This document shows positions 3,165 to 44,058 of a stretch of 64,000 bases of DNA, piece by piece. The stretch covers positions 68,040 through 132,039 of the forward strand of contig MFKT01000029.1 of assembly GCA_001781125.1 (NCBI GenBank), written 5' to 3'. How positions within the stretch are numbered: the stretch's first letter is position 1; every line of letters begins with the position of its first letter. This DNA is from Candidatus Kaiserbacteria bacterium RIFCSPHIGHO2_01_FULL_53_29 (GTDB taxonomy: Bacteria; Patescibacteriota; Minisyncoccia; Phycocordibacterales; UBA2100). The position numbers and the translations under genes were made by a program. The notes under the pieces are model-generated. The model was not told the origin of the DNA. It saw nothing but the letters and a program-made list of their open reading frames with translations, and made no database searches.

Positions 3165-3695
3165 ATGTCCGGACACAATAAATGGGCGCAGATAAAGCGG
3201 CAAAAGGGTGCGAATGACAGCGCGAAAAGTAAAGTGTGGGGTACATTCGGGAAACGCATCGCCGTTGAGAGTAAAAAGGCCAATGGTGATGTGAGCGCGC
3301 CGGGCCTGCGTGCGATGATCGAACGGGCAAAGAAAGAAAATATGCCCAAAGATGCCATCGAGCGCGCGGTCGCAAAAGGGACCGCATCAGACGCAGCAGC
3401 GCTCGAAGCCGTCACCTATGAGACCTACGGTCCGGGTGGCGCTGCGATCGTGATCGAAGCGCTCACCGACAGTCGCAACCGCACGGCACAAGAAATAAAA
3501 CATCTGCTTTCTGCGCTCGGTCTCGCACTCGCATCCCCCGGAAGCGCTCTTTGGGCATTTGAAAAAACCGCGGAAGGCTATACTCCCAAGACCACTGTCC
3601 CACTTTCAGAAACCGATGACGCGCAACTAATGAAAATAATGGAACAGATCGATGCACATGATGACGTGGAAGAAGTGTACACCAACGCCGAATAG
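3165..3695 (+). CDS. yebC: YebC/PmpR-family transcriptional regulator, compact 177-aa form
   Basis: N-terminus MSGHNKWAQIKRQKG and the conserved motif YETYGPGGAAIVIEALTDSRNRT match the YebC family. Sits immediately upstream of ruvC, as in many bacteria. Confidence 0.8.
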   Translation: MSGHNKWAQIKRQKGANDSAKSKVWGTFGKRIAVESKKANGDVSAPGLRAMIERAKKENMPKDAIERAVAKGTASDAAALEAVTYETYGPGGAAIVIEALTDSRNRTAQEIKHLLSALGLALASPGSALWAFEKTAEGYTPKTTVPLSETDDAQLMKIMEQIDAHDDVEEVYTNAE

Positions 3696-3696
3696 C

Positions 3697-3790
3697 CAGC
3701 AGCTCGTAGCTTGGAGCCTGTAGCCTGAAGAAATGCGATACTAGATGCATGGCGTTTTGCTACCAGCTACAAGCTACTGGCTACAAGCTA
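3697..3790. repeat. Heptamer-array inverted-repeat element (GTAGCNN x4 arms with a 28-nt spacer) between yebC and ruvC
   Basis: Left arm agcagctcgtagcttggagcctgtagcctgaag and right arm gctaccagctacaagctactggctacaagctat are near reverse complements. Member of the seven-copy family in this window. Confidence 0.8.
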
Positions 3791-13631: not shown

Positions 13632-14033
13632 TCAGTCTACCTTCGCCGGCGTGATGTTTTGGAGGGCTTTCAAGGTCAAAATATCCGGATTGATCTGGTA
13701 GAGAATAAGATAAATTGCAAGAAGCAAGAGGAGCCCGAACGTCACTTCGCCGAGGATGCCTTTGGCCGCGCTCTTTGTGCTCCACATATCGGCTGCTCCC
13801 ATGTAGAGGTACCCTGCATAGGCTATCCGCAAGACGGCGCCGATCGCACCGATCACAAGCGCGAATTTGAAAAGGCTGTTGACGAAATTCGAGAGATCGC
13901 CCTGCGTAGCGTAGAGCTGCCCCAATTTTGATGACCCCGGTGTTTGCGCAAGCGGTACAAAGGTTCCCACTTGGTAGAGTACAAAACGTCCGCGAGATCT
14001 CAGATACTGTAGGAATTTCTTCATGGGAATCAT
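13632..14033 (-). CDS. Small two-TM pilin-like protein (VirB2/TrbC-like candidate), last gene of the T4SS-like operon
   Basis: Start taken at MIPMKKFLQ, giving an ATGA overlap with the upstream gene's stop. Two long hydrophobic segments separated by a short loop (LFKFALVIGAIGAVLRIAYAGYLYM ... VTFGLLLLLAIYLILY). Confidence 0.45.
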   Translation of the reverse strand: MIPMKKFLQYLRSRGRFVLYQVGTFVPLAQTPGSSKLGQLYATQGDLSNFVNSLFKFALVIGAIGAVLRIAYAGYLYMGAADMWSTKSAAKGILGEVTFGLLLLLAIYLILYQINPDILTLKALQNITPAKVD

Positions 14034-15277
14034 TTGTTGAGCCGCAGGAGCCAGAGAGATCGATCGGTCGCATTTATGAATGCGACATAGTCTCCTCCGC
14101 TGTCCACGATCGGATCGGTAACATCGACCGACGTACCGGCCGGCGAGTACACAAGTTCGGCAGAGCCGGCGAGAGCCTCCACGCGCCAGAAGGCGTCGGA
14201 CGAGTGTATGGCTCCACGGTACCAGTCGTCGAGGAAATTTCTGATCGTTGGTGTCTGCGGCACGCCGCAATATGCGATTAATTCCTTGCCACTTTGCCAT
14301 ACGCACTTGTCTGCAACCGTTTTTATCGGGAGGAGCACCGCTTGTGTGTTCGGAGTCGCCTGTGCGTAGAGAGCCATGGCGCTACCCGCCGATTCTCCCC
14401 AAAGGAGCGCACCCGACGCGTTTTGCCCCGCCGGGGCGGAGCGGGGCAAGATCGTAAGACCGGACGTTGCCCGCAGAAGCGGATCCAGCGTGCCGTCAGC
14501 CTTGAGCTCATACGCGTATCCGGGCACGCCACCTGAAGCGGCCTGTGCAAGAATGATACGGCCGTCCTCAAGCCACAGCAAACGCCAATGCGTGATCGAG
14601 GATGTGAAGATTGTTTTTTGTTTTGATCCATTCCACTGCGAACGGACTCCGGTGACCCCTGTGCCTTCGTGTACGAGATAGAACAATTCATCGGACTTTG
14701 GATTTGTCACGATCTGTGTGATGTTTTTTGCCAGATACAGCCCGGGGAGTGATCGCGTGGATGTCGCGGTATCGGAGACGGGCGTACTGGTGGAAATAGT
14801 TGCAATGAACGTCGTAATGTTGCCCACCTCATCAAGCGAGCGCTCGATCACACGTCCGCTTTCTGTGAGCTGTGCCTCGTAGATCTTCGGGAGGAGCGTA
14901 TTGGAGAGTCGCAGTGTATTCCCCGTTTCCGGATCGGCCTCGAACACATAGCCGGTCGCACGCTCGACGTAGCGCAAGCGCACATCCTTTCCAGTCCCTA
15001 TAAATGCAAGACCGGCAACGGGTTTGCTTTGGACATGCCACAGCTGCGGCGGACGTGCCGTTTGCGTGGGTGAACCTTGCGTGTCCCGCGCGCCACTTCC
15101 AAAAACGGTATTCCCCGCGTTCCCCATGGGTGCCGTTGCCCCGTACCCGCGCGCTGCAGCTCCCGCACGGCTTGTCTGTGATTGCCCGCGCAGGAAAAAA
15201 TACCACCCTGAAAGCCCCCCGAGGATAAGGACCACTACGCCCGCGAGGATATACTCAATGACAGTCTTGGTTTTCAT
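14030..15277 (-). CDS. N-terminally anchored periplasmic protein of unknown function (T4SS-locus associated)
   Basis: 415 aa with a single N-terminal TM (VIEYILAGVVVLILGGLSGWYFFL). Translationally coupled to its neighbours. Confidence 0.5.
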   Translation of the reverse strand: MKTKTVIEYILAGVVVLILGGLSGWYFFLRGQSQTSRAGAAARGYGATAPMGNAGNTVFGSGARDTQGSPTQTARPPQLWHVQSKPVAGLAFIGTGKDVRLRYVERATGYVFEADPETGNTLRLSNTLLPKIYEAQLTESGRVIERSLDEVGNITTFIATISTSTPVSDTATSTRSLPGLYLAKNITQIVTNPKSDELFYLVHEGTGVTGVRSQWNGSKQKTIFTSSITHWRLLWLEDGRIILAQAASGGVPGYAYELKADGTLDPLLRATSGLTILPRSAPAGQNASGALLWGESAGSAMALYAQATPNTQAVLLPIKTVADKCVWQSGKELIAYCGVPQTPTIRNFLDDWYRGAIHSSDAFWRVEALAGSAELVYSPAGTSVDVTDPIVDSGGDYVAFINATDRSLWLLRLNK

Positions 15278-15280
15278 GGT

Positions 15281-16327
15281 TTATTGGTCCACAGAATGGA
15301 ATTGATCTTGTACGCCAGAACTTTCGGAGAAATTGATGTTCCAGGAACTTTTTGCATCCATGTAGTAATTCGTTGCATGAGTGAGTTCAAGTCCGAGAAG
15401 AGCGATTCCCGTTGAGTTCTTTGCGTTGATGGTTATCTCACTCGGACGCGCGGCATTTTGCGCCACTCTGGTGTTATTGACCCGCCAGTCAAAAATGAGC
15501 TGGGCATCATTCGCACTTTGCACCTGCGCAAAATAAGGTATCGCCGCGAACGTCATTTCAGATTCTGGGATGAAGGTCGAAGCGGAAAGTGCATCGTTGT
15601 ACAGGATGCCGAAGAGCGGATGATCTTTATAGAGTAAGAGAATGGGCTCGGTCGATGAGAGGGAAAGCGATCTCGCGCTCGAGAGCGCTGTGTCCCTCGT
15701 GCGGACTTCGAGTGTTATGATGTCAGTACCGAAGAGATGTGGTGAAGGAATTGTTATGCTCGATCTTCCTCTTCCCGAAACGCCCGCGATGACCTCACCG
15801 TTCCTCCGCCAGGTGTAGATGAGGTCAGCGTCGGCCGCAAAGAAACCCGTCGGGAGCTTGAAGCGGGGAATGGCCTGCAGATGAAGATCCACTCCCGCTG
15901 AAACGCGCGCCCCGCCCCGGTAGAAGGGCGGAACAAAAGAATCAGAATCGACCAGCAGATCGAGCCCGGTCGGTATGATCGTAACTTGCGCAGACGCGAC
16001 CGTGCCGACCGGCATGATCGCATCAACCACGATCTTCGTCTCGGTCCCCAGATCTCCTGCGACGACTGTCGCCGTATCGACGCCATCTCCTTGCGCGATC
16101 ACTTTTCCGTTCGCATGCCACGTCAGCGTGATCTCGGAGAGGTCTAAGCTCAAGCTCCGTGCGCTCAAACGCACCGTGTCTCCCGCATCAGGGTGTGCGG
16201 GCGAAAGAGAGATCGAGAGATCCGCACCTTGCTCCGGAGAGGTGAATTGTGCATAGCCGGGCATTGCAAGAAAGAGTGCGGACAGTGCAAGAAATCCAGC
16301 AAGAGCCCCAGCAAAGCGCGCGCTCAT
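15281..16327 (-). CDS. Secreted protein of unknown function (T4SS-locus associated)
   Basis: 348 aa. Signal peptide MSARFAGALAGFLALSALFLAMPGYAQ. 4-bp overlap with the virB4 stop. Confidence 0.5.
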   Translation of the reverse strand: MSARFAGALAGFLALSALFLAMPGYAQFTSPEQGADLSISLSPAHPDAGDTVRLSARSLSLDLSEITLTWHANGKVIAQGDGVDTATVVAGDLGTETKIVVDAIMPVGTVASAQVTIIPTGLDLLVDSDSFVPPFYRGGARVSAGVDLHLQAIPRFKLPTGFFAADADLIYTWRRNGEVIAGVSGRGRSSITIPSPHLFGTDIITLEVRTRDTALSSARSLSLSSTEPILLLYKDHPLFGILYNDALSASTFIPESEMTFAAIPYFAQVQSANDAQLIFDWRVNNTRVAQNAARPSEITINAKNSTGIALLGLELTHATNYYMDAKSSWNINFSESSGVQDQFHSVDQ

Positions 16328-18264
16328 ACCGAAGCGAGGCGGGGTGCACTCGTGGTCGCAGTATCAGCTCCCGGGGCAGCGTGAGCAGGCGCTTGCGAGG
16401 GCAAGGTGGGTTCGTTCGCACTCGCGAGATCCATTTTAGCTTTTTTGATCGCGAGAATTTGTGAGGGGTCCGAGGTGATGATCTGATCTTCAGTATACGA
16501 TGCGATCACTTTGATGGCGACGTGTTTCAGCCCCGCGAAGAATATCCCCTCCCCCACATCCGATTCCAAGAGTAGATATTTTTCTTCGTCTGAAAGTTTG
16601 AATGTCTGTTGGACAAGATCGACCGATGTCGGCGATTGGCGCAAGAGAAGTTGGATCGAGGAGTTGGTGATCATGGGGATGCCGTAGGGCGAATTGAGGA
16701 AGTCGGAGACGTCCTGTGTGATCGTGGAAATGCCGAGATAGTATTTGCGTCCACGCTTCGCGATGGAAAAAAGAAAGGATGCCGTGTCTTCACTGCGCAT
16801 CATCCACCACGCTTCATCAATGACGAGGAGGCGCTTGCGCAACTCTTTGCGCACCGTGTTCCAGATATGGTGCGTGATGATGTACATGGCGACGGGCTTG
16901 AGGTCGTCTTCCATATCGCGCACAGAAAATACGATGAGTTTTTTATTCATGTCCACGTTGGTCGGGCGGTTCATGAATCCTGACCACGTACCCTTGGTGT
17001 ATTTCGAAAGTCGATTTACCAGCGACTCGCTCCCCTCCATGCCCGAGAGCACGAGCTCGAAGTCCGAGAGAAGCGGCGGCTCGACAAGCGCGAAGTTCGC
17101 TTCGGCGGTGATGTCTTTGAGCGCGTATGTTTCGGTAATGGCGCGATCTATGACCGCGTCTTCTTCGGGAGTGAGGCCGCCCAACATGATGCGGAAGAGC
17201 CCGACCAATGTAATGATGTTGTTGCGCAAGATGTCTCCGGGGTTCTCATCTTCGCGCGGCACGGGGAGATCGAAAGGGTTGATATGGTGCTCGCTCGAGA
17301 GTGAAATGTTGAAGTAGCGCCCGCCCACCGTCTCGGCCAAATATTCATATTCGCGCTCGGGGTCGATGACGATGACCTCTGTATCAAACATTAAACTTCG
17401 CAATATTTCAAGTTTCGTGGTATAACTTTTACCGGCGCCGCTCTTTGCGAATGTGACCGAATTATAGTTCTCTAAAGAAAAACGATCGAAAAGAATGAGC
17501 GATGAGTTGTGTCTATTGATACCGTAGAGAATACCCCGGTCCGAGGTGAGGTCGAATGAAATGAACGGGAAGATCGAGGAGAGCGGGGCGGAATTAAGCT
17601 TCGTGTGGACGTTGATCTCATCGGTCGCAAGCGGCAAGACAGAGCGGAAGCCCTGCTCCTGCTGGAAGAGCGCGGGGCGGATGTACACGAGACGCGATTC
17701 GAGGATCGAGCGGACCTCTGTCTCGACTCTGTCGATCTCCTCGCGGGTGTTGCCGTAGATCGTGAGATAGAGACCGACCTCAAAAATGCGCTCCTGTGCC
17801 TGCTGGAGAGAATCTCGCAGCTGTTCCAGATCCGAATACGCGGTATCGAGCATCGGGTCGCGCACCATGCCCTTCTGTTCGCGCGTCGAGATCTGGCTCT
17901 GCACTTCGGCGACTTTTTTCTGGAATTTTCGCAGCATCTCATTGGTGTCCATCGGATGGATGAAAATAGAAATGTCGATGACCTTGTCCATGTTGATGAT
18001 GGGGGCGAACCAGCCTGTGGTGAGGAAGCGGGGGTAGGAGATGACGAAGAATGTGCGGGCGATGCGCTCGCCCAAGTCGAGCTCGCGCGAAGAGATCCGG
18101 AGCGCGTGTGGCGCGATCACGTCCTGCAGATCCAACACCCCCGATTTGTAGATGTCCTCGGGAAGGACAGGCAAAACATTGGGCCCCTCCACTCGTTTCT
18201 TCTTGAACAGATCTAAGAGCGCCATAGACCTATTTTTGGAGTGGCATCGGCTTGCCTTCCTCAC
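16324..18264 (-). CDS. virB4: VirB4/TrbE-family type IV secretion ATPase
   Basis: Walker A FAKSGAGKSYTT, Walker B LLVIDEAWWMM, and the conserved C-terminal domain. Start may be Met 18225 (MALLDLFKKK). Confidence 0.85.
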   Translation of the reverse strand: MRKASRCHSKNRSMALLDLFKKKRVEGPNVLPVLPEDIYKSGVLDLQDVIAPHALRISSRELDLGERIARTFFVISYPRFLTTGWFAPIINMDKVIDISIFIHPMDTNEMLRKFQKKVAEVQSQISTREQKGMVRDPMLDTAYSDLEQLRDSLQQAQERIFEVGLYLTIYGNTREEIDRVETEVRSILESRLVYIRPALFQQEQGFRSVLPLATDEINVHTKLNSAPLSSIFPFISFDLTSDRGILYGINRHNSSLILFDRFSLENYNSVTFAKSGAGKSYTTKLEILRSLMFDTEVIVIDPEREYEYLAETVGGRYFNISLSSEHHINPFDLPVPREDENPGDILRNNIITLVGLFRIMLGGLTPEEDAVIDRAITETYALKDITAEANFALVEPPLLSDFELVLSGMEGSESLVNRLSKYTKGTWSGFMNRPTNVDMNKKLIVFSVRDMEDDLKPVAMYIITHHIWNTVRKELRKRLLVIDEAWWMMRSEDTASFLFSIAKRGRKYYLGISTITQDVSDFLNSPYGIPMITNSSIQLLLRQSPTSVDLVQQTFKLSDEEKYLLLESDVGEGIFFAGLKHVAIKVIASYTEDQIITSDPSQILAIKKAKMDLASANEPTLPSQAPAHAAPGADTATTSAPRLASV

Positions 18265-18895
18265 CGGGGTTGAACATCTTGTAGAGAAGTTCTATTGCTT
18301 CTTCGGTGCCGAGTTGTACCGTGCGCACGCCGGTGCGCACCAGCCCCTGCTGCACGATCGAGACACGCTGCTCGAGCTGTGTGACCTGTTCTTCGAACGA
18401 CCTGTTCGCCTCTTCGCTCCCTTTCTTCTTTTTCCCGAATGGCAAGAGTGCGAGCGGACCCCTCTGCGTGATGTCGATCGACGCAGAGTACGGCACTGCG
18501 ACGAAGAAATTTTTTGTCATGATATTGGCGGCTTCGGTGAAGCTCTTTACGAACTCGATATATTCGCGGATCTGGATGCGCATGAGGTCGTCGAGCTGCT
18601 CCTTGTACGCGGCCTCCAGTGTCGCCACATAGGGGCGGATGTCGAGCATGCGCGACTGCACGAAGATCTGCACGGAAAAATCCAGCGAGTTGAGAAAATT
18701 TTGGAATTGCACGATGAATGCGGTTTGTTCATCTTCGGATTTAAGCGCGAAGTTGATGCTCGAGGCGAGAAGTATGGCGCGCAAGCCGCCGTCTTTGAGT
18801 ACGATGACACCGTCGCGCACCTCGGAAACCGGCAGGAATTCCTGCGTTGAGCGGGCGGAGGCGCGCGGGCCTTTATCTTCTGTTTTTGTGGGCAT
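18230..18895 (-). CDS. Hypothetical T4SS-associated protein immediately upstream of virB4
   Basis: 221 aa, soluble. Co-oriented and tightly packed in the operon. Confidence 0.5.
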   Translation of the reverse strand: MPTKTEDKGPRASARSTQEFLPVSEVRDGVIVLKDGGLRAILLASSINFALKSEDEQTAFIVQFQNFLNSLDFSVQIFVQSRMLDIRPYVATLEAAYKEQLDDLMRIQIREYIEFVKSFTEAANIMTKNFFVAVPYSASIDITQRGPLALLPFGKKKKGSEEANRSFEEQVTQLEQRVSIVQQGLVRTGVRTVQLGTEEAIELLYKMFNPGEEGKPMPLQK

Positions 18896-18898
18896 AGG

Positions 18899-19408
18899 TT
18901 ACTGGCTGCGCGCGAGCGCTTGCTGCGCCGTGCGTATCGGTACGACGAGGTCTTGATCGGTGCGGATAATGTGGCGCTCCTCGTCGTTGGCGACCCCTCC
19001 CGCGATACGCTCCTTAATATCCAAACTCCACGAGAGTTCATGTAATCTGCTCTCGGAGAGCTTAGGCACGTAGATCTCGGCACTCCCCTGCGCCATCTTG
19101 CCCACCACCGGCATCGCAACACTTTTTTTGCGTGTGTTGTTCCAGAGATAGAGCTTGCTTCGCAGAAGGAAAAAGAACCCGTTCTCGAGGGCAAGAATAA
19201 ATGGCCGTCCATTGACCTGGAAAAAGGCAAGACCTGCGGCAAGGCCACCGGTGAGTACCACAAGAGGCGCCGCAAGATACATGGGCAATACGCGCCACAT
19301 GATGTAACAAGCGCCGAGGCCCCCGGCGACGTAGATGAATTGTTTAAAGGTCAAAGGGCCAAAAATCTTATCCTCGACCTCGATGAATTGTGGTACCTGG
19401 AATTGCAT
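18899..19408 (-). CDS. Small two-TM protein, VirB3/PrgI-like candidate
   Basis: 169 aa. Hydrophobic hairpin FIYVAGGLGACYIMWRVLPMYLAAPLVVLTGGLAAGLAFF, typical of VirB3-class subunits that precede VirB4. Confidence 0.5.
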   Translation of the reverse strand: MQFQVPQFIEVEDKIFGPLTFKQFIYVAGGLGACYIMWRVLPMYLAAPLVVLTGGLAAGLAFFQVNGRPFILALENGFFFLLRSKLYLWNNTRKKSVAMPVVGKMAQGSAEIYVPKLSESRLHELSWSLDIKERIAGGVANDEERHIIRTDQDLVVPIRTAQQALARSQ

Positions 19409-19414
19409 AGAGTT

Positions 19415-19445
19415 AGCTTGTAGCCGGTAGCTTGTAGCCGGTAGC
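19415..19445. repeat. Heptamer-array arm (AGCTTGT/AGCCGGT units), left arm flanking the IVS-protein gene
   Basis: agcttgtagccggtagcttgtagccggtagc. Reverse complement of the arm at 19818-19853. Confidence 0.8.
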
Positions 19446-19465
19446 TAAAAAAGCACCCGGCAAGC

Positions 19466-19816
19466 TTACCGAAGCGCTTTAATCATACCATGCAACATTT
19501 TACTCATTTCGGTTACTTGTGTACGCACGTTTTCGAACTCTTTTTCTGTGCAAAAGGCAAGCTCCTTGCTTATTAAGAGCTGCGTTTCAAGCTCAGCTAA
19601 GGAGCCGTGCGCCATTCGCAAGAAATGTCCAAAATCGGCATCGGTCCCACGCCGTCTCCCCTCTGCTATGTTTGATGGTACAGATACGGCTGCGCGACGG
19701 ATTTGTGATGTAAGGCCATACATCTCACGCGACGGGAACTTTTCGGTGAGCCGGTATATCAATGTACAAAGTGCAACCGCCTTTTTCCAGACCGCCAAAT
19801 CTTCGTGTGATTGCAT
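19466..19816 (-). CDS. Four-helix-bundle protein of the 23S rRNA intervening-sequence (IVS) family (PF05635-like)
   Basis: HEDLAVWKKAVALCTLIYRLTEKFPSREMYGLTSQIRRAAVSVPSNIAEGRRRGTDADFGHFLRMAHGSLAELETQL is the hallmark sequence of this family. ATG at 19816 preferred over the TTG at 19840, which lies inside the repeat arm. Confidence 0.8.
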   Translation of the reverse strand: MQSHEDLAVWKKAVALCTLIYRLTEKFPSREMYGLTSQIRRAAVSVPSNIAEGRRRGTDADFGHFLRMAHGSLAELETQLLISKELAFCTEKEFENVRTQVTEMSKMLHGMIKALR

Positions 19817-19817
19817 A

Positions 19818-19853
19818 GAGCTACGGGCTACTGGCTGCAAGCTACTGGCTTAC
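19818..19853. repeat. Heptamer-array arm, right arm flanking the IVS-protein gene
   Basis: gagctacgggctactggctgcaagctactggcttac. Inverted partner of 19415-19445. Confidence 0.8.
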
Positions 19854-20473
19854 TGCGGTGGCTCCCGGTAGGGATCGTCTTCAACGGACTTCCGAACTGT
19901 CGAGGCCTCGCCGGCTTTGTAGGCGGCTGATACGGGCGCGCGTTCTATTTTCCCCGTAGGTGAGGTCGAGGGCGGTGTAGCCGGTGCAACGAAGCTTGTA
20001 GCTTGTAGCTTGTAGCTTGTAGCAGATTCGGCATTCGTGCTGGCTTCAGGCTCCAAGCTACTGGCTACGGGCTGTTCTCCCAGCACTTGCGAGCGCACAT
20101 CTTCAACCCCGGTCGTATCTGCGGCCCTTGCATCCGGATGCTCGAGCTCACGCTCGAGCTGTTCGCGGACCGGTTGGAACACGATGCGGGAAACATTCGA
20201 AGCCAAGTCCTGTGCCATCTCCTGCGTAACATCAAGGTCTGCTTTGATGTTATCCGCAAGCTCCTCCGGTGGCTGGAACCCCATGAGCGTGAGCAGTACC
20301 TCGTTCTCCAGGAGTTGCCATTGGTCAAGATGCAATTTATTGGTATCCGCCAATTCCCGCAGCTGCTTCTGTATGTCGGTCGACGTAATAGCATCTTGCA
20401 ACACCTTCGGGAGCTCCTTAAACCGCTCCTTCAACTTCGCATTCAACTCATCTTGTGTCATTTTCATGTCCAT
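19850..20473 (-). CDS. Hypothetical acidic protein whose C-terminal region is encoded by a heptamer-repeat element
   Basis: N-terminal 120 aa look protein-like (MDMKMTQDELNAKLKERFKELPKVLQDAI...). C-terminal part translates the repeat (SYKLQATS). True 3' end uncertain. Confidence 0.4.
   Translation of the reverse strand: MDMKMTQDELNAKLKERFKELPKVLQDAITSTDIQKQLRELADTNKLHLDQWQLLENEVLLTLMGFQPPEELADNIKADLDVTQEMAQDLASNVSRIVFQPVREQLERELEHPDARAADTTGVEDVRSQVLGEQPVASSLEPEASTNAESATSYKLQATSFVAPATPPSTSPTGKIERAPVSAAYKAGEASTVRKSVEDDPYREPPQ
19993..20074. repeat. Heptamer-array inverted-repeat element (4 x AGCTTGT left arm, spacer, complementary right arm)
   Basis: agcttgtagcttgtagcttgtagcttgtagc, then a 19-nt spacer, then gcttcaggctccaagctactggctacgggctg. 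Confidence 0.8.
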
Positions 20474-20486
20474 ATATCAATGGGCA

Positions 20487-23363
20487 CTAGCTAGCTGGTG
20501 CGGCGGGGGCAGCGGGCGCGCCTCCTCCTGCGCCCGAACCAGTTTGTATATCTGCGAGCACGTCACGCAAGCCGGCAGTCTTCACCTTCTTTTTAAACAG
20601 GTCCGGAATTTCATCTTGTACGGCCTTATTTACAAGCGTTACTTTACCCAAAGTACGCGTGAGAATGTCCCCCTGTATTGCAGCGAACTCCTTGACAACT
20701 CCTTGAGCAGAAGTCGCCAGTCCTTTGGTCCCCTCTGTCGCCGCTTGATTCGCAAGTCTTTCCGTATCGGTCTGCCATTTTCTTTCCAGTGTCTCTCCGT
20801 ATTTTTTTTCAGCCGTAGCAAAATCATTCTGTACCCTCTTGAGATTGGGATCGTTTTCTATGTTGCCGATACGTGCTACCAATTGTTCTGCATTGCTGCG
20901 CGCATCGCGCGATCGACCAAACACCTCGTCATATTTTCTTGCTCTTTCTACGACTGCGGGATCTAGGGTAGGAATTTTACTTTGGACCTGAATGCGTGCT
21001 TGTTCGATACGATCTTCTTGGTGTCGCATGTCACTTCTGCGCTGCTCTTCAGAACTGGCGAGCTGGTCTTCAATTACTTTTCGCTGCTTCGAATCGGTAA
21101 TTGTTGAGAGCTGTGCCTTGAGACCTTGAATGACCGGATCATGTTTTGCGGCCGCCGTCGCTTTGCCCCCCGCGACTTCCGCTGCAGCGGCGTCAAGTTC
21201 GCGTTTCGCAGCATCCTTTGCTTCAGAATATTGATTCCGCTCGTCAGCGCTGAGATTGCTTGCTCGGGTCTCCGCTTGATCAATAATATCTTGTGCCGCT
21301 TTTTGTTGCGCAACAAATTTCGGATCATTGGCGAGAGCAGGATTTTCAGTTGCCATTTTCTTTAGGGAATCTCTAATGTCTTCCTGAACCGCAACGTTTT
21401 CCGGGCTGTAGAGGGTGCCATCGTTCGCCGCGGCCTTGAACGCGGTGCGGAACTCGTTGCCCACGGTTGTAAGTTGATCTTTCGTCGCTTTAGCAACCTT
21501 CTCTGCCGTTGTCAGCTGTTCTTTAAGCGGTCGTTCTCCTGCGGGATTCATTTTGCCGTCTGCTTCGTCCGCGGCGTCTTTCAGCGCAGCCTCAGCTATT
21601 TCTTTTGCGTTCTTCCGGTCCTCAACCTCCTTTCGTCGTTCGCGACGGATCCTTTCTTTCTCGATCTCCTTCACCTTTTCGTTGTCCTCTGCTGACGGTG
21701 CGATTTTTGCGGCTATTTTTTCTGCTTTTTCGGTTCGTCCTTTGACTTGGTCTGCATAACTCTTTTCGAGAGTAGTTCTCCCTGATTGTCCTGCTGCGAA
21801 ACCAGTAATGCCGACCGTTTTGGCAACGTTCTGAGCAGTTTTCGTATCCATTATATTGAAGCGACTATCCGCAAGTTTTCCTGCCTGTTCCATCGATTTC
21901 AATTTACTTGCAGCCAACCTCCTCTTTTCAGCGGCGGCTTTCCGCGTTTGCTCTGCAAGTGGAATGTTCCCCAGCGCTTCGTGTCTGTCCGCCGCCCGGT
22001 CCATAGCCGCCGCTTCATTATTTTCTCTCTTTGCGTCTTTGCCGAGTCTTTTAGCAGCAAAATATGCCGGCATGCCAATGCCCAAACGTCCTGCGCCGCC
22101 CACAAGGAAGCGGCTCCCTTGGATCAAGGGAGATAGAGCAAGAGCGCCGGCCAAATTGAATCCGGTGACAGTTCCTGCGATCTTGCTCGAGAGCTTGAAT
22201 GATATAAAGAGCATGCCGAGTACCATTACGAAGTTGAAGAGCGCGGCGATGTTGGCCCCGGGCGTCTGACTCGTCATGAGAGCGCCGAGGGTCCCACAAT
22301 TATGGCCCCCGCTACAGAGTGCTTTGCTCAAGGAGTTCGAGACATTCAACGTTATCCACAAAAAGAGCATCAATGCGGGTGCTAAGACAGCGCTCCCGAT
22401 AAGCGATTTCCACCATACATCCCATCCATAACTGCTCTTCTCCCACGCGGGAACAAGATAGCTCGCGAATGCGAGCGATGCGGTGACCATCAGGAAGATA
22501 AAAATGAGCGCCCGTGAAGCAAGGAGGTAGGTGCCGTATAAAAAGACGAGCGCGGTAGCGATGAGGAAGACGAAAGAGAGAATGCCGTAGACAAGGCCGA
22601 GAAGCGCGTTGTCGTTATTCTCCTGAATTCCGCGCAGCGCGTTGTATGAGTCGGCGATCCCGCCGACGCCGAGGAATCTCAAAAAACTTCCGGCGATGCC
22701 GTTGCCGGTAATGGTCGCAGCACCCGCCCCTGTGTTTGCGGTCGCGGACGGCGCCGCCGCCTCGTCCGCTTGTTTGAGAGCTCCATTGTAGAGCTGGAGT
22801 GCGGTGAAGTTCGACACGTCGATCATCATCTTGGTAAAAAGCAGGCTGAAGTTGATGAGAATGGCGATGATGAGTACCTTCGCGACCATTTTTTTCGCGT
22901 TGAACGTTTGCAATCCGAGAATGGTGCCGATCGCGATAAAAGTGAATATGCCGATGATAAGGATGTTGGCGATATCGCGAAATGCGCTCCACGCGGTATT
23001 GACCCCTTGCTCGATATTGTTGAATATCAGACCTCTGAAGTCGACTATGGTCGCCTTCAGCGCAAATTCGAAGAGCATACTCATCCAGGTGAGGACTGTT
23101 ATTCCGATGTACATAAAGAGCGATCCGAGACCCGCGAATATGCCCCGCATCCAACATATCGGATTTAAGTTGCTCAAATTCCATCCGCTCGAGCATGAAG
23201 TGCTCCCCGCATCATTCGCGACGCCGGAAGCCCCCACGACAGCGTTGAGACCTTGCGCATGGGTAACGGTGGGAATAGCTGTTACCCCTGCGCTGAAGCA
23301 GACCAAGAGCGCAATAAAGACGATTGCGGATCTTTGCCAACGAGTTTGTTTGAAGGTCATCAT
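20487..23363 (-). CDS. VirB6/TrbL-like polytopic membrane protein with a long C-terminal K/E/A-rich coiled-coil extension
   Basis: Signal/TM N-terminus, then about 8 TM helices over the first roughly 480 aa (TrbL/VirB6 architecture). Then about 470 aa of low-complexity charged coiled coil ending in GSGAGGGAPAAPAAPAS. Confidence 0.65.
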   Translation of the reverse strand: MMTFKQTRWQRSAIVFIALLVCFSAGVTAIPTVTHAQGLNAVVGASGVANDAGSTSCSSGWNLSNLNPICWMRGIFAGLGSLFMYIGITVLTWMSMLFEFALKATIVDFRGLIFNNIEQGVNTAWSAFRDIANILIIGIFTFIAIGTILGLQTFNAKKMVAKVLIIAILINFSLLFTKMMIDVSNFTALQLYNGALKQADEAAAPSATANTGAGAATITGNGIAGSFLRFLGVGGIADSYNALRGIQENNDNALLGLVYGILSFVFLIATALVFLYGTYLLASRALIFIFLMVTASLAFASYLVPAWEKSSYGWDVWWKSLIGSAVLAPALMLFLWITLNVSNSLSKALCSGGHNCGTLGALMTSQTPGANIAALFNFVMVLGMLFISFKLSSKIAGTVTGFNLAGALALSPLIQGSRFLVGGAGRLGIGMPAYFAAKRLGKDAKRENNEAAAMDRAADRHEALGNIPLAEQTRKAAAEKRRLAASKLKSMEQAGKLADSRFNIMDTKTAQNVAKTVGITGFAAGQSGRTTLEKSYADQVKGRTEKAEKIAAKIAPSAEDNEKVKEIEKERIRRERRKEVEDRKNAKEIAEAALKDAADEADGKMNPAGERPLKEQLTTAEKVAKATKDQLTTVGNEFRTAFKAAANDGTLYSPENVAVQEDIRDSLKKMATENPALANDPKFVAQQKAAQDIIDQAETRASNLSADERNQYSEAKDAAKRELDAAAAEVAGGKATAAAKHDPVIQGLKAQLSTITDSKQRKVIEDQLASSEEQRRSDMRHQEDRIEQARIQVQSKIPTLDPAVVERARKYDEVFGRSRDARSNAEQLVARIGNIENDPNLKRVQNDFATAEKKYGETLERKWQTDTERLANQAATEGTKGLATSAQGVVKEFAAIQGDILTRTLGKVTLVNKAVQDEIPDLFKKKVKTAGLRDVLADIQTGSGAGGGAPAAPAAPAS

Positions 23364-23505
23364 ACCCGGCTAGTACAATTTCGAATAATTCCTGCCGCAG
23401 GTCACACTGCGGAAAGGTTGCATAACGGCTGAGTCATTTTTTCTTGTCATACGTTGGTGAATATTCATACAAGGCGATTCGAAATTGTCCTGCCGGGCAT
23501 ACTCA

Positions 23506-25209
23506 TTACTTCCACTTTGTGACCCACGCCGCTCTCGTCGCATCGTTCGTGGCGTTGCACCAGCCGACCCCGGGATTTGTCGTGCCGTCCCATGAGAGAT
23601 TTGCGGGAGTGCTCCCATCAGAGCCGACTCCTGTCCATGTATCTCTCGTCGTTTGCAGCAAATTCGTCAATGAGCTCAGGGTGCTTTGCTGTTGCTGTGT
23701 GATCGCTGCCACATCCGGCGGCGTATGGAGAACAGGAGGACGCGCACTGACGAGCTGATCGAGCTCCTGGAGTGCCTGGGATTGTGTGGCGGGATTCGAG
23801 AGACGTGCAGCGATACTCGTGAGTTTTGCAAGCGTTTCATCGGATTTCTGGATGGCGGGTAGTATTTGAGCCGCCAAAGTTCCGATCTGGGAATCGATGA
23901 CCGCTTGCGCGAATTGATAGGTCGAAGTCGCAACGGTGAGACTGCCGCTTGCAGGCGGTTTGGCGGTACATTTTCTATCAGCGTCTGGTGGTGCGGTGCA
24001 CACGTTCGAAATGACGAGAGCCCAGCACTGATTCTCGAGGCCCCGCAGCTGCAATGTCGCTTGCGTGAGCAGACTCCCGATCGATTTCACGACCTGATTG
24101 TACTGCTGCTCTGTTCGCAGAGCGCCGGCGAGATTGTTGTTCGCGACATTGACGGCGGCATCCCGCAGGCCCTGCCCCGATTGCGAGGAGACCTGATCGA
24201 GATATGATGGCTGGCCGCCGATGCTTTGAGACAGGCCCGCGAGTCCCTGAGAATCAGCCACGATCTGTGTTGCCACGCCGGCATAGAGAGCTCCTATCAT
24301 CTGGCCGATGTCGTTGGCGCTTTCCAGTTGGCGCACAGAACTATCGATGACGTTCTGGAACGTGCTGTTCACGTTGGAGGCTGGCGTGAGCACCCTTTGG
24401 TTCAGGGGATCTTGCGCCCCATCGGTTAGGGCATAATAGCCGCGACCCCAATTCCATTGATCAAGCTGGTACTGTTTCGCCGCTGCGATCCTGCTGTTTA
24501 CGAGATCCTGAGCTTCAAATTTTGCATATAGAGGGACACAATCCGGATCGGCCCCGGCAAGAAAAGCATCGAAACTGAAATTCTGTGTCGGGTTGGTCTG
24601 GAACGGGGTCAGATCCCCCTCATAGGGACACGTGAGCTCGGTCTGCGGCGCCCTAGTACTTGTGTCGTAATTGACGAGTACGGCACGACTCACCGCCGCC
24701 TTGAAAGCCGGATTGAGCGAATCGAGCGCACCGCTCTGGAACCACGAAACGAATACTTGATCGCCTACGGTCAAGAGTTCCTGCCCTTCATTCACCGCGT
24801 ACTGTGGATTGCCGTTGCGACCCTCTTGGATCCCCTTGTAAGACCTTTTTAAATATGCTGCGCTGGCGGCTTCCCGCTGGCGGACTATCACTTCGCGCAG
24901 CACGCATTCTTTGTACACCAGGATCCCTGTATTGAGCTCGACGGTCGCATCGGCAACGGGCACGTATATCCCGTTTGCCGTGAGCGACCCCACATTCATC
25001 GCGAACGCGCCGTTCTGGTTGCAGTCGAAGATCCCCTGTCGCTGGTATTGATACGCCTGCGCGTTCGCAAAAAGAGGCAGAAAGCATCCCGAGACAACGA
25101 GCGCAGACAAAAGGGTCTTCTTCACCCCGTTAGAGACCGCAGGCAACGAATTTTCTTTCATCATCATTTGGTCAGTTGTTGGACGACCGGAGTCTCTAAT
25201 GGGGCTCAT
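23506..25209 (-). CDS. Large secreted protein of unknown function (T4SS-locus associated)
   Basis: 567 aa. Hydrophobic leader KKTLLSALVVSGCFLPLFANAQA. ATGA start/stop overlap with the upstream gene. Q/N/S-rich. Confidence 0.55.
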   Translation of the reverse strand: MSPIRDSGRPTTDQMMMKENSLPAVSNGVKKTLLSALVVSGCFLPLFANAQAYQYQRQGIFDCNQNGAFAMNVGSLTANGIYVPVADATVELNTGILVYKECVLREVIVRQREAASAAYLKRSYKGIQEGRNGNPQYAVNEGQELLTVGDQVFVSWFQSGALDSLNPAFKAAVSRAVLVNYDTSTRAPQTELTCPYEGDLTPFQTNPTQNFSFDAFLAGADPDCVPLYAKFEAQDLVNSRIAAAKQYQLDQWNWGRGYYALTDGAQDPLNQRVLTPASNVNSTFQNVIDSSVRQLESANDIGQMIGALYAGVATQIVADSQGLAGLSQSIGGQPSYLDQVSSQSGQGLRDAAVNVANNNLAGALRTEQQYNQVVKSIGSLLTQATLQLRGLENQCWALVISNVCTAPPDADRKCTAKPPASGSLTVATSTYQFAQAVIDSQIGTLAAQILPAIQKSDETLAKLTSIAARLSNPATQSQALQELDQLVSARPPVLHTPPDVAAITQQQQSTLSSLTNLLQTTRDTWTGVGSDGSTPANLSWDGTTNPGVGWCNATNDATRAAWVTKWK

Positions 25210-26053
25210 AGCTGTTTTTTCGCGTTGTACGAGTAGAGCCCACTGAACGATGTGAACATGTTCCGTTCGGCCTGATCATAGCTGCGCAAGAGTGCCACTG
25301 AGGCAAACGGGTCCTCCGCGTGTGCCACCAGCTGCTCAAGTGTCGCCGCGAATTCCTGCATTGCATTAAGAATAGCGAGGTGCTGCACGACAGCGTCTGC
25401 CGGAGCCGCGACATTCGCAGTGGAGGCAGCCGCATCTTTGTAATTCTTTGCCACTTCGGTGAGTTCTTTGAGGTAGGACGCATCTTTCGTTTGCACGTAG
25501 TTCCCAAAGATCTCGTATTCAGGGGTCGTGTTCTTGAAAAGCGGCTTCAGTGTGCTCTGGAGAGCAAGGCGATACGCGAGCATTGCCGCATAAGACGTGT
25601 CGGAGCTTGTCTTGACGTCTGCCTTTGTGAAGCGGCGATATGAGACCTCTGCGCGCATCAGCGGAGCGAGATCCTGTGCGATTTGCGCGCCCGCCTCCTC
25701 CGTATACGTACCCGCTTGCTGCATCTGCGCGTATTGACCGGCAAGCCGGTCCATCACCACTGCGCCAATGGAGGAGATCGCGTCGGTCGAAGACGTCGCG
25801 GATGAAAAAGATGCACTGCCGAATATCGACATCCCCGCCACGTTTTCTTTTGACGAAGAAATGTCTGTACCCGCATCCGCAGAGGCGACATAGGTCGTTG
25901 CACTTTTCTTCTCCTGCACCGATCTCTCCACGCTCCATCCAAGAACCACCATGAGCGCCAAGACAGAAGCTGCGGCGGTTATCCCAATAGCCGTGAACCC
26001 ACGACTGTTGTTGCAATAGGACAAAAAGCCCACGCATCTGTTCGCGCGTTTCG
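25206..26053 (-). CDS. Membrane-anchored protein of unknown function (start uncertain; ORF-track N-terminus runs into the repeat element)
   Basis: TM segment ITAAASVLALMVVLGW followed by an S/A/T-rich soluble domain. Upstream ORF extension translates heptamer repeats (MLQATSYWLQ), so the start is placed at the GTG/Met near 26053. Confidence 0.45.
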
Positions 26054-26075
26054 TTCTCACACAGGAAGTATAACA

Positions 26076-26171
26076 AGCTTGTAGCCAGTAGCTTGTAGCT
26101 TGTAGCAAAAAAGAGGAAAAATACGAAACACTCTCTGGCTTCAGGCTACGAGCTGCTGGCTACAGGCTCCC
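26076..26171. repeat. Heptamer-array inverted-repeat element
   Basis: agcttgtagccagtagcttgtagcttgtagc, then a 31-nt A-rich spacer, then ggcttcaggctacgagctgctggctacaggctcc. Confidence 0.8.
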
Positions 26172-26210
26172 GATTTGTCCGCGCGTAGCGCGGTCACAAA
26201 TCGCAGTCCT

Positions 26211-27104
26211 TTATGGGCTCATGGGCGTGAACGTGAAGACGCTTCCCGCATCACTTTGTGCAAAGACGACGCCATAGGCGCCGAAAAGTTCTGCCACCGC
26301 GACATAGTTTCTTGTGAACGTATCAGCCGAAGCGTTGTACGTCTGTATTGCCGCAATAAAATCACTATCGCGCTCTGCATAAGGCACCAGTGCGAGGTTG
26401 GTTCCTATCGCGATGTAGCTCTTTGCCAATTTCTGGTGCGCCGAAGCCATTGCGCTTGGCACGACGTCCATACCTTGGAGATTTTGGCCCACTTCTTTGA
26501 GAGCCCGCGCGAGCTCGCCCACGGCGGCTGCCTTATTGCTGTCACTGCGGTCCTCGACCTGATCTTTAAGCGTCTGCGCTTTCCCTTGGTTCTGTTCTTC
26601 AAAAGATCGAATGTATGAACCAATATCGTTGCCGTAATCGTAGAGTTTTTGCTGTGTCGCGCTGCGACTCTGTTGGACCGACGTGGTGCTCATAAGTCCG
26701 CTTGGTATGAATGCGTATGCATCTGTCACCTGGTTGTCAGTGCCTCGCGCCCCGCCCGAGGCGGGTCGGCCTTGGGCCGAGAGCAGTGCGATGAACGCGT
26801 TGAAATCGAATGGAGCACTCTGCTCCGTATCAGGATCTTTTACCACAGGCGGGGTATATGCGGAGGGCACGGTCAGAACATTTGGGAACACGGAGTATTG
26901 ATTTTGGGATGGCTGGGTCGACGCGGGGGCAGGAGGCGTATGCGATGATGGATTGAAGAGTGAGATCTCTGTGCCTGCCCACGTCCGTGTGCTTGCGGCG
27001 GGGGATGCCGCGGAGCGGCTGTTCACAATGAGCGCGCCCACGAGGAGAAGTGCCAGCGTTGCGGCCAATGCATCTACGTACGGGTGTGCGCGTAACCAAT
27101 TCAT
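26211..27104 (-). CDS. Membrane-anchored protein of unknown function; carries an in-frame palindromic insertion (QGRPASGGARG)
   Basis: 297 aa. N-terminal TM ALAATLALLLVGALIV. First gene of the minus-strand operon. Contains the element cccgaggcgggtcggccttggg at 26755-26776. Confidence 0.5.
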   Translation of the reverse strand: MNWLRAHPYVDALAATLALLLVGALIVNSRSAASPAASTRTWAGTEISLFNPSSHTPPAPASTQPSQNQYSVFPNVLTVPSAYTPPVVKDPDTEQSAPFDFNAFIALLSAQGRPASGGARGTDNQVTDAYAFIPSGLMSTTSVQQSRSATQQKLYDYGNDIGSYIRSFEEQNQGKAQTLKDQVEDRSDSNKAAAVGELARALKEVGQNLQGMDVVPSAMASAHQKLAKSYIAIGTNLALVPYAERDSDFIAAIQTYNASADTFTRNYVAVAELFGAYGVVFAQSDAGSVFTFTPMSP

Positions 27105-27197
27105 AGCCGGTAGCCGGTAGCTTGTAGCTCGTAGCGGATCCGAAGCCCCATCCGACTAATTGTACGGCTACGGGCTACAGGCTACAAGCTACGGGCT
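27104..27197. repeat. Heptamer-array inverted-repeat element in the divergent promoter region
   Basis: agccggtagccggtagcttgtagctcgtagc, then a 30-nt spacer, then ggctacgggctacaggctacaagctacgggctg. Confidence 0.8.
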
Positions 27198-27215
27198 GTG
27201 TGGTAAAATTTATGA

Positions 27216-43261: not shown

Positions 43262-43915
43262 TCACTCCACTCCCGTGATCTTGCCGATCTTGGATATGTC
43301 CTCCGTCGATTGTGGCGCTATGGAATCTTCAGACGCTGATACCTGCACATCGCTTGCTTGCCCTGAACCAGACGAGCGGGTCGAACGACGGCGCATGGTG
43401 GGGCCACGGTAATTGATGAGGTAGCGGCGCGGTTCTTCGTCGAGGTCGAGGAAGTGGTCGGTCGCTTCTTTGAGTTTGAGGGATGTGGAGCGCCCGAAGG
43501 ATACCACTTCCACCTGACAGCCTGCGTGGATCTTCAGGTATTCGACGAGCGGAATGAAGTCACCGTCACCGGTAAAAAGTATCACCGTGTCGAGCTTGGA
43601 CGACGCGGTGATGGCGTCGACCGCCAGCCCCACGTCCCAGTCGGCCTTTTTGGCACCGCCATAGAATATCTGGAGATCTTTGGTTTTTGGCTCGATGCCC
43701 ATTTTGGTGAGTGCCTCGAGAAATGCAGTCTCCTCGCCGGACTCGGTCGTCACCATGTAGGCGCGCGCGCGAATGAGGCGGCGACCGGCGACCGAATCTT
43801 TGAGCACGTTGCCGAAATTCACGCGTGCGTGATAAATATTCTTCGCGCTATGGTAGAGATTTTGCGTGTCGATGAAGACGCCGACGCGCTGTTCCGGATG
43901 CTTGATGATGGCCAT
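43262..43915 (-). CDS. NYN/LabA-like domain protein
   Basis: VGVFIDTQNLYHSAK ... LFTGDGDFIPLVEYLK match the NYN nuclease fold. S/T/R-rich C-terminal tail. Confidence 0.7.
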   Translation of the reverse strand: MAIIKHPEQRVGVFIDTQNLYHSAKNIYHARVNFGNVLKDSVAGRRLIRARAYMVTTESGEETAFLEALTKMGIEPKTKDLQIFYGGAKKADWDVGLAVDAITASSKLDTVILFTGDGDFIPLVEYLKIHAGCQVEVVSFGRSTSLKLKEATDHFLDLDEEPRRYLINYRGPTMRRRSTRSSGSGQASDVQVSASEDSIAPQSTEDISKIGKITGVE

Positions 43916-43919
43916 AAAT

Positions 43920-44058
43920 AGCTTGGAGCCAGTAGCTTGTAGCTAGTAGCAATAAAAAATAAAAAAGAATTTATAAAAAACTTACTAAAGTGTACTCCCT
44001 TACGAAACGCGAGCAAACGAATTTGCTCCAGGCTACCGGCTACGAGCTACAGGCTATT
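43920..44058. repeat. Heptamer-array inverted-repeat element with an 80-nt A/T-rich spacer containing an internal hairpin (gagcaaacgaatttgctc)
   Basis: agcttggagccagtagcttgtagctagtagc ... ggctaccggctacgagctacaggctatt. Lies between the NYN gene start and the rpsO stop. Confidence 0.8.

Follow-up and report, generated by a model that had tools for sequence, protein, structure and literature searches.

A four-helix-bundle gene between inverted heptamer arrays in a secretion-like operon of Candidatus Kaiserbacteria and its likeness to rRNA intervening sequences

The closest described relatives of the element analysed here, a four-helix-bundle (FHB) gene enclosed by inverted heptamer arrays in a 64,000-nucleotide stretch of Candidatus Kaiserbacteria bacterium RIFCSPHIGHO2_01_FULL_53_29 (assembly GCA_001781125.1, contig MFKT01000029.1, positions 68,040 to 132,039 of the forward strand; hereafter the window, which supplies all coordinates unless another locus is named), are the intervening sequences (IVSs) of rRNA genes. 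The IVS in the 23S rRNA of Coxiella burnetii has a 28-bp terminal stem and 3-4 tandem heptamers (GACAGAT) that end at the ATG of the S23p gene, with a Shine-Dalgarno (SD) motif of poor quality and a repeat number that varies between strains; it is excised by RNase III, the 5' cut being made at the first repeat, and its open reading frame (ORF) is decaying and apparently untranslated (PMC4990558). A literature search indicates that rRNA insertions in the Candidate Phyla Radiation (CPR) also include 23S_rRNA_IVP ORFs. The FHB family, for which a R..S..N..E motif has been described, is further represented by genes that have cas genes on both sides, cmr3 and cmr2 in one example, and that were read as functional partners of these genes without mention of flanking repeats (PMC3936711). 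A second described relationship between a gene and hairpins is that of the REPIN-RAYT systems, in which REP doublets, mostly intergenic hairpins, accompany a single-copy RAYT gene that is itself flanked by REPs (PMC3116915, PMC3337134), and in which RAYT genes show long vertical inheritance under purifying selection (bioRxiv 10.1101/2021.07.10.451892; PMC3116915). The FHB family has no known function outside the Avd proteins of diversity-generating retroelements (DGRs), and rRNA IVSs have been without an origin story for 30 years.

In the window, the FHB gene and its heptamer arrays lie within a protein-coding operon. We consider it fairly probable, by analogy with the rRNA elements, that this is an operon-resident palindromic cassette of the IVS type whose stem would be an RNase III substrate, that is, the mRNA form of the element that is called an IVS in rRNA.

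The cassette and its place in the operon

The FHB gene encodes a protein of 116 aa on the minus strand (19466-19816, with the ATG at 19816). An earlier note on this DNA, made from the letters without database searches, had assigned the ORF to the four-helix-bundle family of IVSs, and profile searches place it there with scores far above the cut-offs of PF05635 (E = 2.6e-40, 137.4 bits against a cut-off of 33.8, with residues 5-110 on profile positions 1-106) and TIGR02436 (E = 1.4e-39, 134.7 bits, cut-off 24); the match to NF008911 is also above threshold (150.8 bits, cut-off 137). The RxxxSxxxNxxE motif of the family is present, with R41, S45, N49 and E52 invariant in the FHB alignment. Its sequence is the same (100% identity) as that of a protein recorded for Ca. 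Kaiserbacteria RIFCSPLOWO2_12_FULL_53_8, and it matches the pentameric protein XCC0516 of known structure (PDB 2gsc, E = 7.5e-29), an entry with five chains. Taken by itself, the gene is an ordinary member of a known and very large family, the '23S IVS protein' family, for which a single search returned more than 8000 candidates.

On both sides the gene is bordered by an arm built of heptamers. In gene sense, the 5' arm (19820-19855, minus strand) consists of five units, which on the plus strand read GCTACGG, GCTACTG, GCTGCAA, GCTACTG and GCTTACT (Tandem Repeats Finder (TRF), period 7, 5.0 copies), and the 3' arm (19414-19446, minus strand) of two copies of the pair GCTACCG GCTACAA followed by GCTA (TRF period 14, 100% matches). 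The earlier description of the arms as reverse complements of each other holds in part: the left arm stands as quoted (19415-19445), whereas the right arm is found at 19820-19855 rather than at 19818-19853, and the complementarity is imperfect, amounting to 84-88% over 24-25 nt in an inverted repeat search. As had been expected, the arms can pair into a stem of about 30 bp with the ORF inside it. For a 461-nt region, the in silico structure of minimum free energy has the two arms base-paired with each other (-158.9 kcal/mol, z = -2.9); as a duplex on their own the arms reach -43.3 kcal/mol, and when joined through a short loop they give z = -4.2.

The cassette fits closely between its neighbors. 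The TAA stop (19850-19852) of the upstream cistron, a 207-aa gene (19850-20473, minus strand), falls within the outermost heptamer of the 5' arm; the FHB ATG follows 3 nt past this arm, with no SD-like sequence before it; and the ATG (19408) of the downstream cistron, a PrgI/VirB3-like gene (18899-19408, minus strand; PF12666, E = 2.4e-9), comes 5 nt after the 3' arm. The virB3-like gene thus lies where it had been placed earlier, but the presumed VirB6-like neighbor on the other side, a polytopic protein of 958 aa without a Pfam match, is one gene further upstream, beyond the 207-aa ORF, for which Pfam and NCBIfam profile searches gave no match. An Rfam scan found no rRNA within the window. 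This arrangement is best explained as a promoterless FHB gene set between two inverted arrays of about five heptamers, exactly in the stop-start spacer of an operon that resembles the type IV secretion systems (T4SSs) of the CPR.

Transcribed as part of the operon mRNA, such a cassette would pair its arms into a duplex of about 30 bp with the insert looped out, so that the upstream stop codon and the PrgI start codon would come to lie next to each other at the foot of the stem. By analogy with the rRNA IVSs of Coxiella and Leptospira, for which the evidence is experimental, the duplex would be a substrate of RNase III, and its cleavage, which on this analogy probably occurs, would free the FHB mRNA and part the upstream from the downstream cistrons. 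The cassette would be tolerated because it folds itself out of the host transcript. The parallel with the topology of an rRNA IVS excised by RNase III, which had been drawn from the letters of the window, extends to the terminal inverted repeats made of heptamers that end before the ATG, as in the 23S IVS of Coxiella. The best explanation of the term IVS would be that it names the same element when it has landed in rRNA, and the sequences suggest that IVSs exemplify a general type of cassette, in which an FHB gene is enclosed by a hairpin of inverted heptamer arrays.

A spacer of 19 nt (19447-19465, minus strand) separates the stop codon of the ORF from the 3' arm and ends in a U6 run. The FHB stop codon is overlapped by a small hairpin that resembles a terminator (19473-19456, minus strand); this hairpin precedes the U6 run and lies within the cassette, just ahead of the 3' arm. 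The T-rich tract preceding the 3' arm recurs in orthologous cassettes and in three of the ORF-less hairpins that are described in the next section (H1, H4 and H6). The identification of the structure as an intrinsic terminator was considered and rejected: the long arms have no trailing U run, and the small internal hairpin is not conserved in the orthologues.

Hairpins without an ORF and cassettes at other junctions

The heptamers of the arms are not confined to the cassette. With at most two mismatches allowed, (GTAGCNN)x3 occurs 35 times in the window (0.01 expected), and all of these occurrences fall within six inverted pairs, five of which are ORF-less (solo) hairpins with loops of 19-74 nt and fold z-scores that span -2.5 to -6.4. 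The arms are a dispersed repeat and not private to the FHB ORF.

Several of the solo hairpins adjoin start codons. The 3' arm of H1 (3699-3790, z = -3.7) ends in GCTATG, which contains the ATG of ruvC (3790). H5 (27104-27197, z = -6.4) occupies the entire spacer between two divergent genes, with the ATG of the left gene (27104) among the initial bases of the arm and the start of the right gene 3-15 nt beyond the arm (GTG at 27200 or ATG at 27212). H6 (43919-44056, z = -5.2), which has a 74-nt AT-rich loop, lies between an NYN-domain gene (ATG at 43915) and a second gene that starts at about 44061. At the upstream end of the T4SS-like cluster, H4 (26076-26165, z = -5.4) separates two genes on the minus strand.

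The remaining solo hairpin, H3 (19993-20073), is found within a coding sequence. Its GTAGC heptamers with a 19-nt loop are carried as an in-frame insert by the 207-aa gene upstream of the cassette and are translated on the minus strand as ...PVASSLEPEAS..ATSYKLQATSF...; the one unit that would bring TAG into frame is GAG. In an alignment of orthologues (labels such as L002 and L006 denote the loci that were compared with the window), exactly this segment is missing from the orthologue in L006 and a longer version is present in L002, so that H3 is a true insertion. As RNA, H3, H4 and H5 fold 10-13 kcal/mol better from the plus strand than from the minus strand because their mismatches are G.T on the plus strand; this preference could stem from a bias of mutation between the strands, or from a role at the DNA level or as antisense.

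Arrays of the type (GTAGCNN)n are found across many phyla, for example in Cyanobacteria, Gallionellales, Acidobacteriota, Bacteroidota, Streptomyces and Alcanivorax, and some reach 19 units. A scan of genome contigs for (GTAGCNN)x4 yielded 120 loci from many phyla (L009-L128), mostly single arrays or long microsatellite-like arrays, with about a dozen short-loop hairpins like those of the window. Since only 3 of these 120 loci contain an FHB gene within 8 kb of sequence, GTAGC arrays alone are not diagnostic of the cassette.

Cassettes orthologous to that of the window are present at the same junction, between a gene of about 200 aa and the PrgI gene, in no fewer than five further lineages (L002, L219, L222, L223 and L224), where the FHB proteins are 64-76% identical to that of the window. 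All have arms of the GTAGC type that pair at -30 to -56 kcal/mol. Between lineages, the identity of the FHB proteins (64-75%) can be set beside that of PrgI (51-66%), of the product of the upstream gene (33-50%) and of the N-terminal VirB4 protein, VirB4N (74-83%). Among the FHB orthologues, the proportion of nonsynonymous differences (pN) is about 0.2 and that of synonymous differences (pS) is 0.63-0.90, that is, saturated; the GTAGC core and the complementarity of the arms have been kept although synonymous sites are saturated. Because the same junction is occupied in diverged lineages and pN is low against a saturated pS, the cassette is of old age, has been inherited vertically and is subject to purifying selection. 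That of the window is an ancient resident of its junction and not a recent landing.

Closely related cassettes also occur at different junctions in related genomes, which indicates that the cassette, including its arms, has moved between mRNA contexts. In L006 the cassette is located between the genes for VirB4N and VirB4C, the C-terminal part of VirB4, and the junction between its 198-aa gene and PrgI is empty (…CGCGTAATGCAG…), whereas in the window it is the VirB4N-VirB4C junction that is empty. In L005 the cassette lies between dnaN and a penicillin-binding protein (PBP) gene. The suggestion in the earlier note that such elements can land in mRNA operons is thus sustained by the different junctions but not by the window itself, where the insertion is not recent, and its question whether orthologous T4SS loci lack the insert has a mixed answer, as the L006 junction is free and that of the five lineages listed above is occupied.

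A second, very divergent FHB gene (16% identity) is present in L002 at the VirB4 junction. Its arms belong to a different heptamer family, (AAGTACN)n, and are 97% complementary, and a solo AAGTAC hairpin is found one gene away. At positions 8041-8160 of L002, a 60-nt tandem duplication extends over the 3' arm and the region around the start codon of the VirB4 ATPase gene downstream, the unit being present twice (TTAGTACTTCG…TTCATACC[C/T]ATGGCTCTCA). In a population variant of the window locus (L209, about 3352-3395), the 3' arm is without 14 nt, corresponding to two heptamers, in comparison with nine other assemblies; this deletion may be due to repeat slippage or may be an assembly artefact. 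A direct repeat of 14 nt at the borders of the cassette (TAGCTCTATGCAAT at 19810-19823 and TAACTCTATGCAAT at 19402-19415) was considered as a target-site duplication and rejected, because the FHB and PrgI genes ancestrally start with ATGCA(A/G) in relatives and the surrounding bases differ there.

The surrounding minus-strand cluster of the CPR T4SS-like type (13632-27104) consists of a pilin-like gene, several genes for unassigned membrane or secreted proteins, a split virB4, prgI and the gene of the polytopic protein of 958 aa; of the six heptamer hairpins of the window, four lie in it or at its edge. The VirB4 homolog is encoded as two proteins, a TraC-like N-terminal part (221 aa) and an ATPase part, in all Kaiserbacteria that were examined (16324-18895 on the minus strand of the window, 6998-10099 in L002, 5309-8557 in L006). 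In the window, 4 nt separate the stop codon of the first from the ATG of the second, and in L002 and L006 the same junction holds an FHB cassette, with two different heptamer families. A PADLOC search gave no match.

Cassettes across the FHB family

A metagenome scan with the FHB alignment yielded 80 loci from unrelated bacteria with 43-56% identity, of which 70 have both flanks available; FHB genes related to the query are overrepresented in the sample, and metagenome assemblies recover rRNA operons poorly. Flanking inverted repeats rise clearly above shuffled controls in 47 of the 70 loci. The best self-similarity period is 7 or 14 in 58 of the 70 upstream flanks and in 57 of the 70 downstream flanks, as against 11 of the 70 ORF interiors. 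The heptamer is lineage-specific (AGTTTCG, AGTGACG, TTAGTGG, AGGGGTC, AGGTAAC and others), and the dinucleotide AG is present in 46 of 52 consensus heptamers, where 27 would be expected. The arms have a median length of 30 nt, and the arrays are typically made of 4-5 units.

The position within operons is also shared. In 29 of the 47 loci with clear arms, the stop codon of a co-directional upstream gene falls in a range that runs from 30 nt ahead of the 5' arm to 23 nt within it, and in 30 of the 47 an ORF on the same strand starts at most 25 nt past the end of the 3' arm. None of the 80 loci was found by Rfam to be in rRNA, in a sample that favors relatives of the query and in assemblies that represent rRNA operons poorly. 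Residence in operons therefore appears to be the rule for the sampled FHB genes, most of which occupy stop-start junctions between co-directional protein genes, and the assumption that the family normally lives inside 23S rRNA does not fit these relatives. A corollary is that caution is due before FHB genes in cas, T4SS or other operons are taken as functional partners of these systems.

Additional arrays of the cassette's own heptamer are found within 2.5 kb in 7 of the 47 loci, compared to 8 of 235 for foreign heptamers. The similarity between heptamers correlates with the similarity between the FHB proteins, although this correlation could arise through co-inheritance alone. Rfam assigned no family to the hairpins or to the 80 related loci apart from unrelated matches to tRNA and to Acido-Lenti-1 RNA (RF01687). 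The latter matches are located about 2 kb from FHB cassettes (L151, 165-210; L206, 2303-2348), and this proximity is probably coincidental because the sequence is not heptamer-like. The idea that the arms serve as translational stops in all frames was also considered; it is true of the GTAGC arms of the window, which present TAG in every frame, but it is not a family trait, as only 13 of the 47 5' arms close all three frames.

Competing explanations and comparison with known systems

Several observations weigh against a cassette that acts through the folding and cleavage of operon mRNA. Across the family, the mismatches of the cassette arms show no excess of G.U over A.C on the sense strand (33 vs 24, p = 0.29), and H3 and H4 fold better as antisense RNA though they lie within a minus-strand operon, so that selection on sense-RNA pairing is not demonstrated. 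H5 and H6 fill divergent intergenic regions, where promoters would be located and each transcript would probably carry just one arm, which speaks for a DNA-level or single-arm role of at least some copies. A motif search of the 64-kb window for an RNase III signature found none. Finally, the strong purifying selection on the ORF implies that the protein does something, and the mRNA-resident cassette as proposed here does not say what.

The serious rival, which is compatible with the mRNA-resident cassette and might equally be its complement, is a DNA-level relationship of the REPIN/RAYT kind. In such a relationship the FHB protein would be a trans-acting factor that recognizes, maintains or disseminates heptamer hairpins, the solo hairpins would be its non-autonomous population, and the RNA stem would be a by-product. 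This explanation is possible rather than probable. It accounts for the heptamer that the cassette arms share with five solo hairpins within 64 kb, for the true in-frame insertion of H3, and for the long vertical inheritance under purifying selection that has been described for RAYTs. Other genomes conform to it as well: within 3 kb, L002 has both GTAGC and AAGTAC heptamers, and an FHB cassette and a solo hairpin belong to each of these two families; L005 contains a cassette and a solo GTAGC hairpin; and own-heptamer arrays are enriched near cassettes relative to foreign ones. The prevalence of AG in the heptamers, beside the invariant R, S, N and E residues of the protein, and the parallel between heptamer and protein similarity also agree with recognition of the repeat by the protein, but the latter is explained by co-inheritance alone. 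Against this explanation, a four-helix bundle of 116 aa has no known nuclease, transposase or catalytic motif, no target-site duplication is evident, and GTAGC arrays and hairpins are spread over many phyla, nearly always without an FHB gene in the 8-kb locus (3 of 120 have one).

A wider proposal, which we advance only tentatively and with more doubt, joins these elements into a single system. In this scheme FHB genes and heptamer hairpins would be the two parts of a widespread system that perpetuates itself and is present in many phyla, in which a pentamer would read about five AG-containing heptamers, one protomer per repeat, and would maintain, spread or regulate hairpins at gene starts and operon junctions; rRNA IVSs would be copies that landed in rRNA. 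If true, this system would provide a function for a large orphan family and explain the origin of rRNA IVSs. The sampled cassettes, which sit at stop-start junctions of operons, are vertically inherited under selection and coexist with ORF-less hairpins of the same repeat, make several ideas testable, namely the processing of operon mRNAs by RNase III at the stems, the binding of pentamers to heptamer arrays, and a REPIN/RAYT-like relation between gene and hairpin.

It is unlikely that the FHB gene and its stem are a domesticated component of the T4SS operon, that is, a dedicated regulator or accessory such as an intercistronic stem-loop that, like REP elements in some operons, would tune mRNA stability or the translation of PrgI and VirB4. 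Such a role would agree with a junction that is likewise occupied in no fewer than five further lineages, with an ORF as conserved as the T4SS genes, and with the clustering of the elements in the operon, where the cassette and H3, H4 and H5 lie within 8 kb and where L002 has two cassettes and two hairpins. The other contexts of the cassette tell against it. The same type of cassette is found between dnaN and PBP in L005 and at a different junction in L006, whose operon works without an insert between the 198-aa gene and PrgI; relatives in other phyla reside in unrelated operons, also between cas genes; and solo hairpins flank ruvC and the NYN-domain gene.

We give very little credence to an Avd protein of a DGR or to an inert relic, a decaying ORF with transposon scars, as the similarity to Avd (PF22296, 28.4 bits; NF033474, 31.4 bits; phrog_3206 of PHROGs, E = 1e-9) is weak and falls below the cut-offs of both curated models (40 and 80 bits, respectively), a crude motif search found neither a YxDD motif of the reverse transcriptase (RT) type nor IGNxxSQ in any plausible ORF of the window, and the ORF is intact and under purifying selection, with arms conserved despite saturated synonymous sites.

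Among known systems, the Avd proteins resemble the FHB product of the window in a distantly related four-helix-bundle fold, that of a basic nucleic-acid-binding pentamer, as the weak profile matches indicate; they differ in that the scores are under the curated cut-offs and that no RT gene or template and variable repeats are nearby. Rickettsia palindromic elements are palindromes similar to miniature inverted-repeat transposable elements (MITEs) that are inserted in frame in protein genes and translated as an extra peptide. H3 is like them in being in frame and translated, and differs in its heptamer arrays, in the unrelated organism and in the existence of an ORF-bearing form. The short tandemly repeated repetitive (STRR) sequences of cyanobacteria are heptanucleotide tandem repeats dispersed in intergenic DNA. 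A literature search found no link between these repeats and FHB genes, and we know of no reported link to inverted pairing.

The likeness to REPIN-RAYT systems concerns the arrangement and history of the parts. The FHB gene of the window is single-copy and lies between inverted copies of a repeat whose other copies are scattered as short hairpins, most of them between genes, and its vertical inheritance is long. The differences concern the parts themselves, as the FHB protein is a small four-helix bundle and not a Y1/HUH transposase (IS200/IS605-like), with Pfam and NCBIfam matches to FHB families only, the repeats are tandem heptamer arrays instead of a fixed REP of 20-25 nt, and no mobilization activity is known for FHB proteins.

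The rRNA IVSs that carry an S23p/FHB ORF, in Leptospira, Coxiella burnetii, Xanthomonas and Brucella and in 16S and 23S insertions of the CPR, contain a gene of the same protein family as the window cassette, and their ORF is likewise enclosed by a stem of about 28-30 bp that the terminal inverted repeats make up. In the literature searched, heptamers are mentioned only in the Coxiella paper and only for the rRNA IVS of Coxiella, and no description was found of heptamer-array hairpins as a general trait of the FHB family, of their placement at operon junctions or of ORF-less copies. With the Coxiella IVS in particular, the cassette shares tandem heptamers that end just before the ATG, without a good SD sequence (in the window, five heptamers that end 3 nt before it), and a variable number of heptamers, which in Coxiella depends on the strain and here on the population variant (the 14-nt variant in L209). 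The cassette of the window differs in its host, which is a protein-coding operon with protein genes on both sides and not a helix of 23S or 16S rRNA; in the strong purifying selection on its ORF, which is decaying in Coxiella; in that excision by RNase III is known for the Coxiella IVS, whereas the window cassette is known from its sequence; and in the dispersed ORF-less copies of its hairpin in the same genome. What the present comparison adds to the IVS is accordingly a generalization, which comprises inverted heptamer-array hairpins around FHB genes, their precise placement at operon junctions, and dispersed copies of the hairpin that are ORF-less or inserted in frame.

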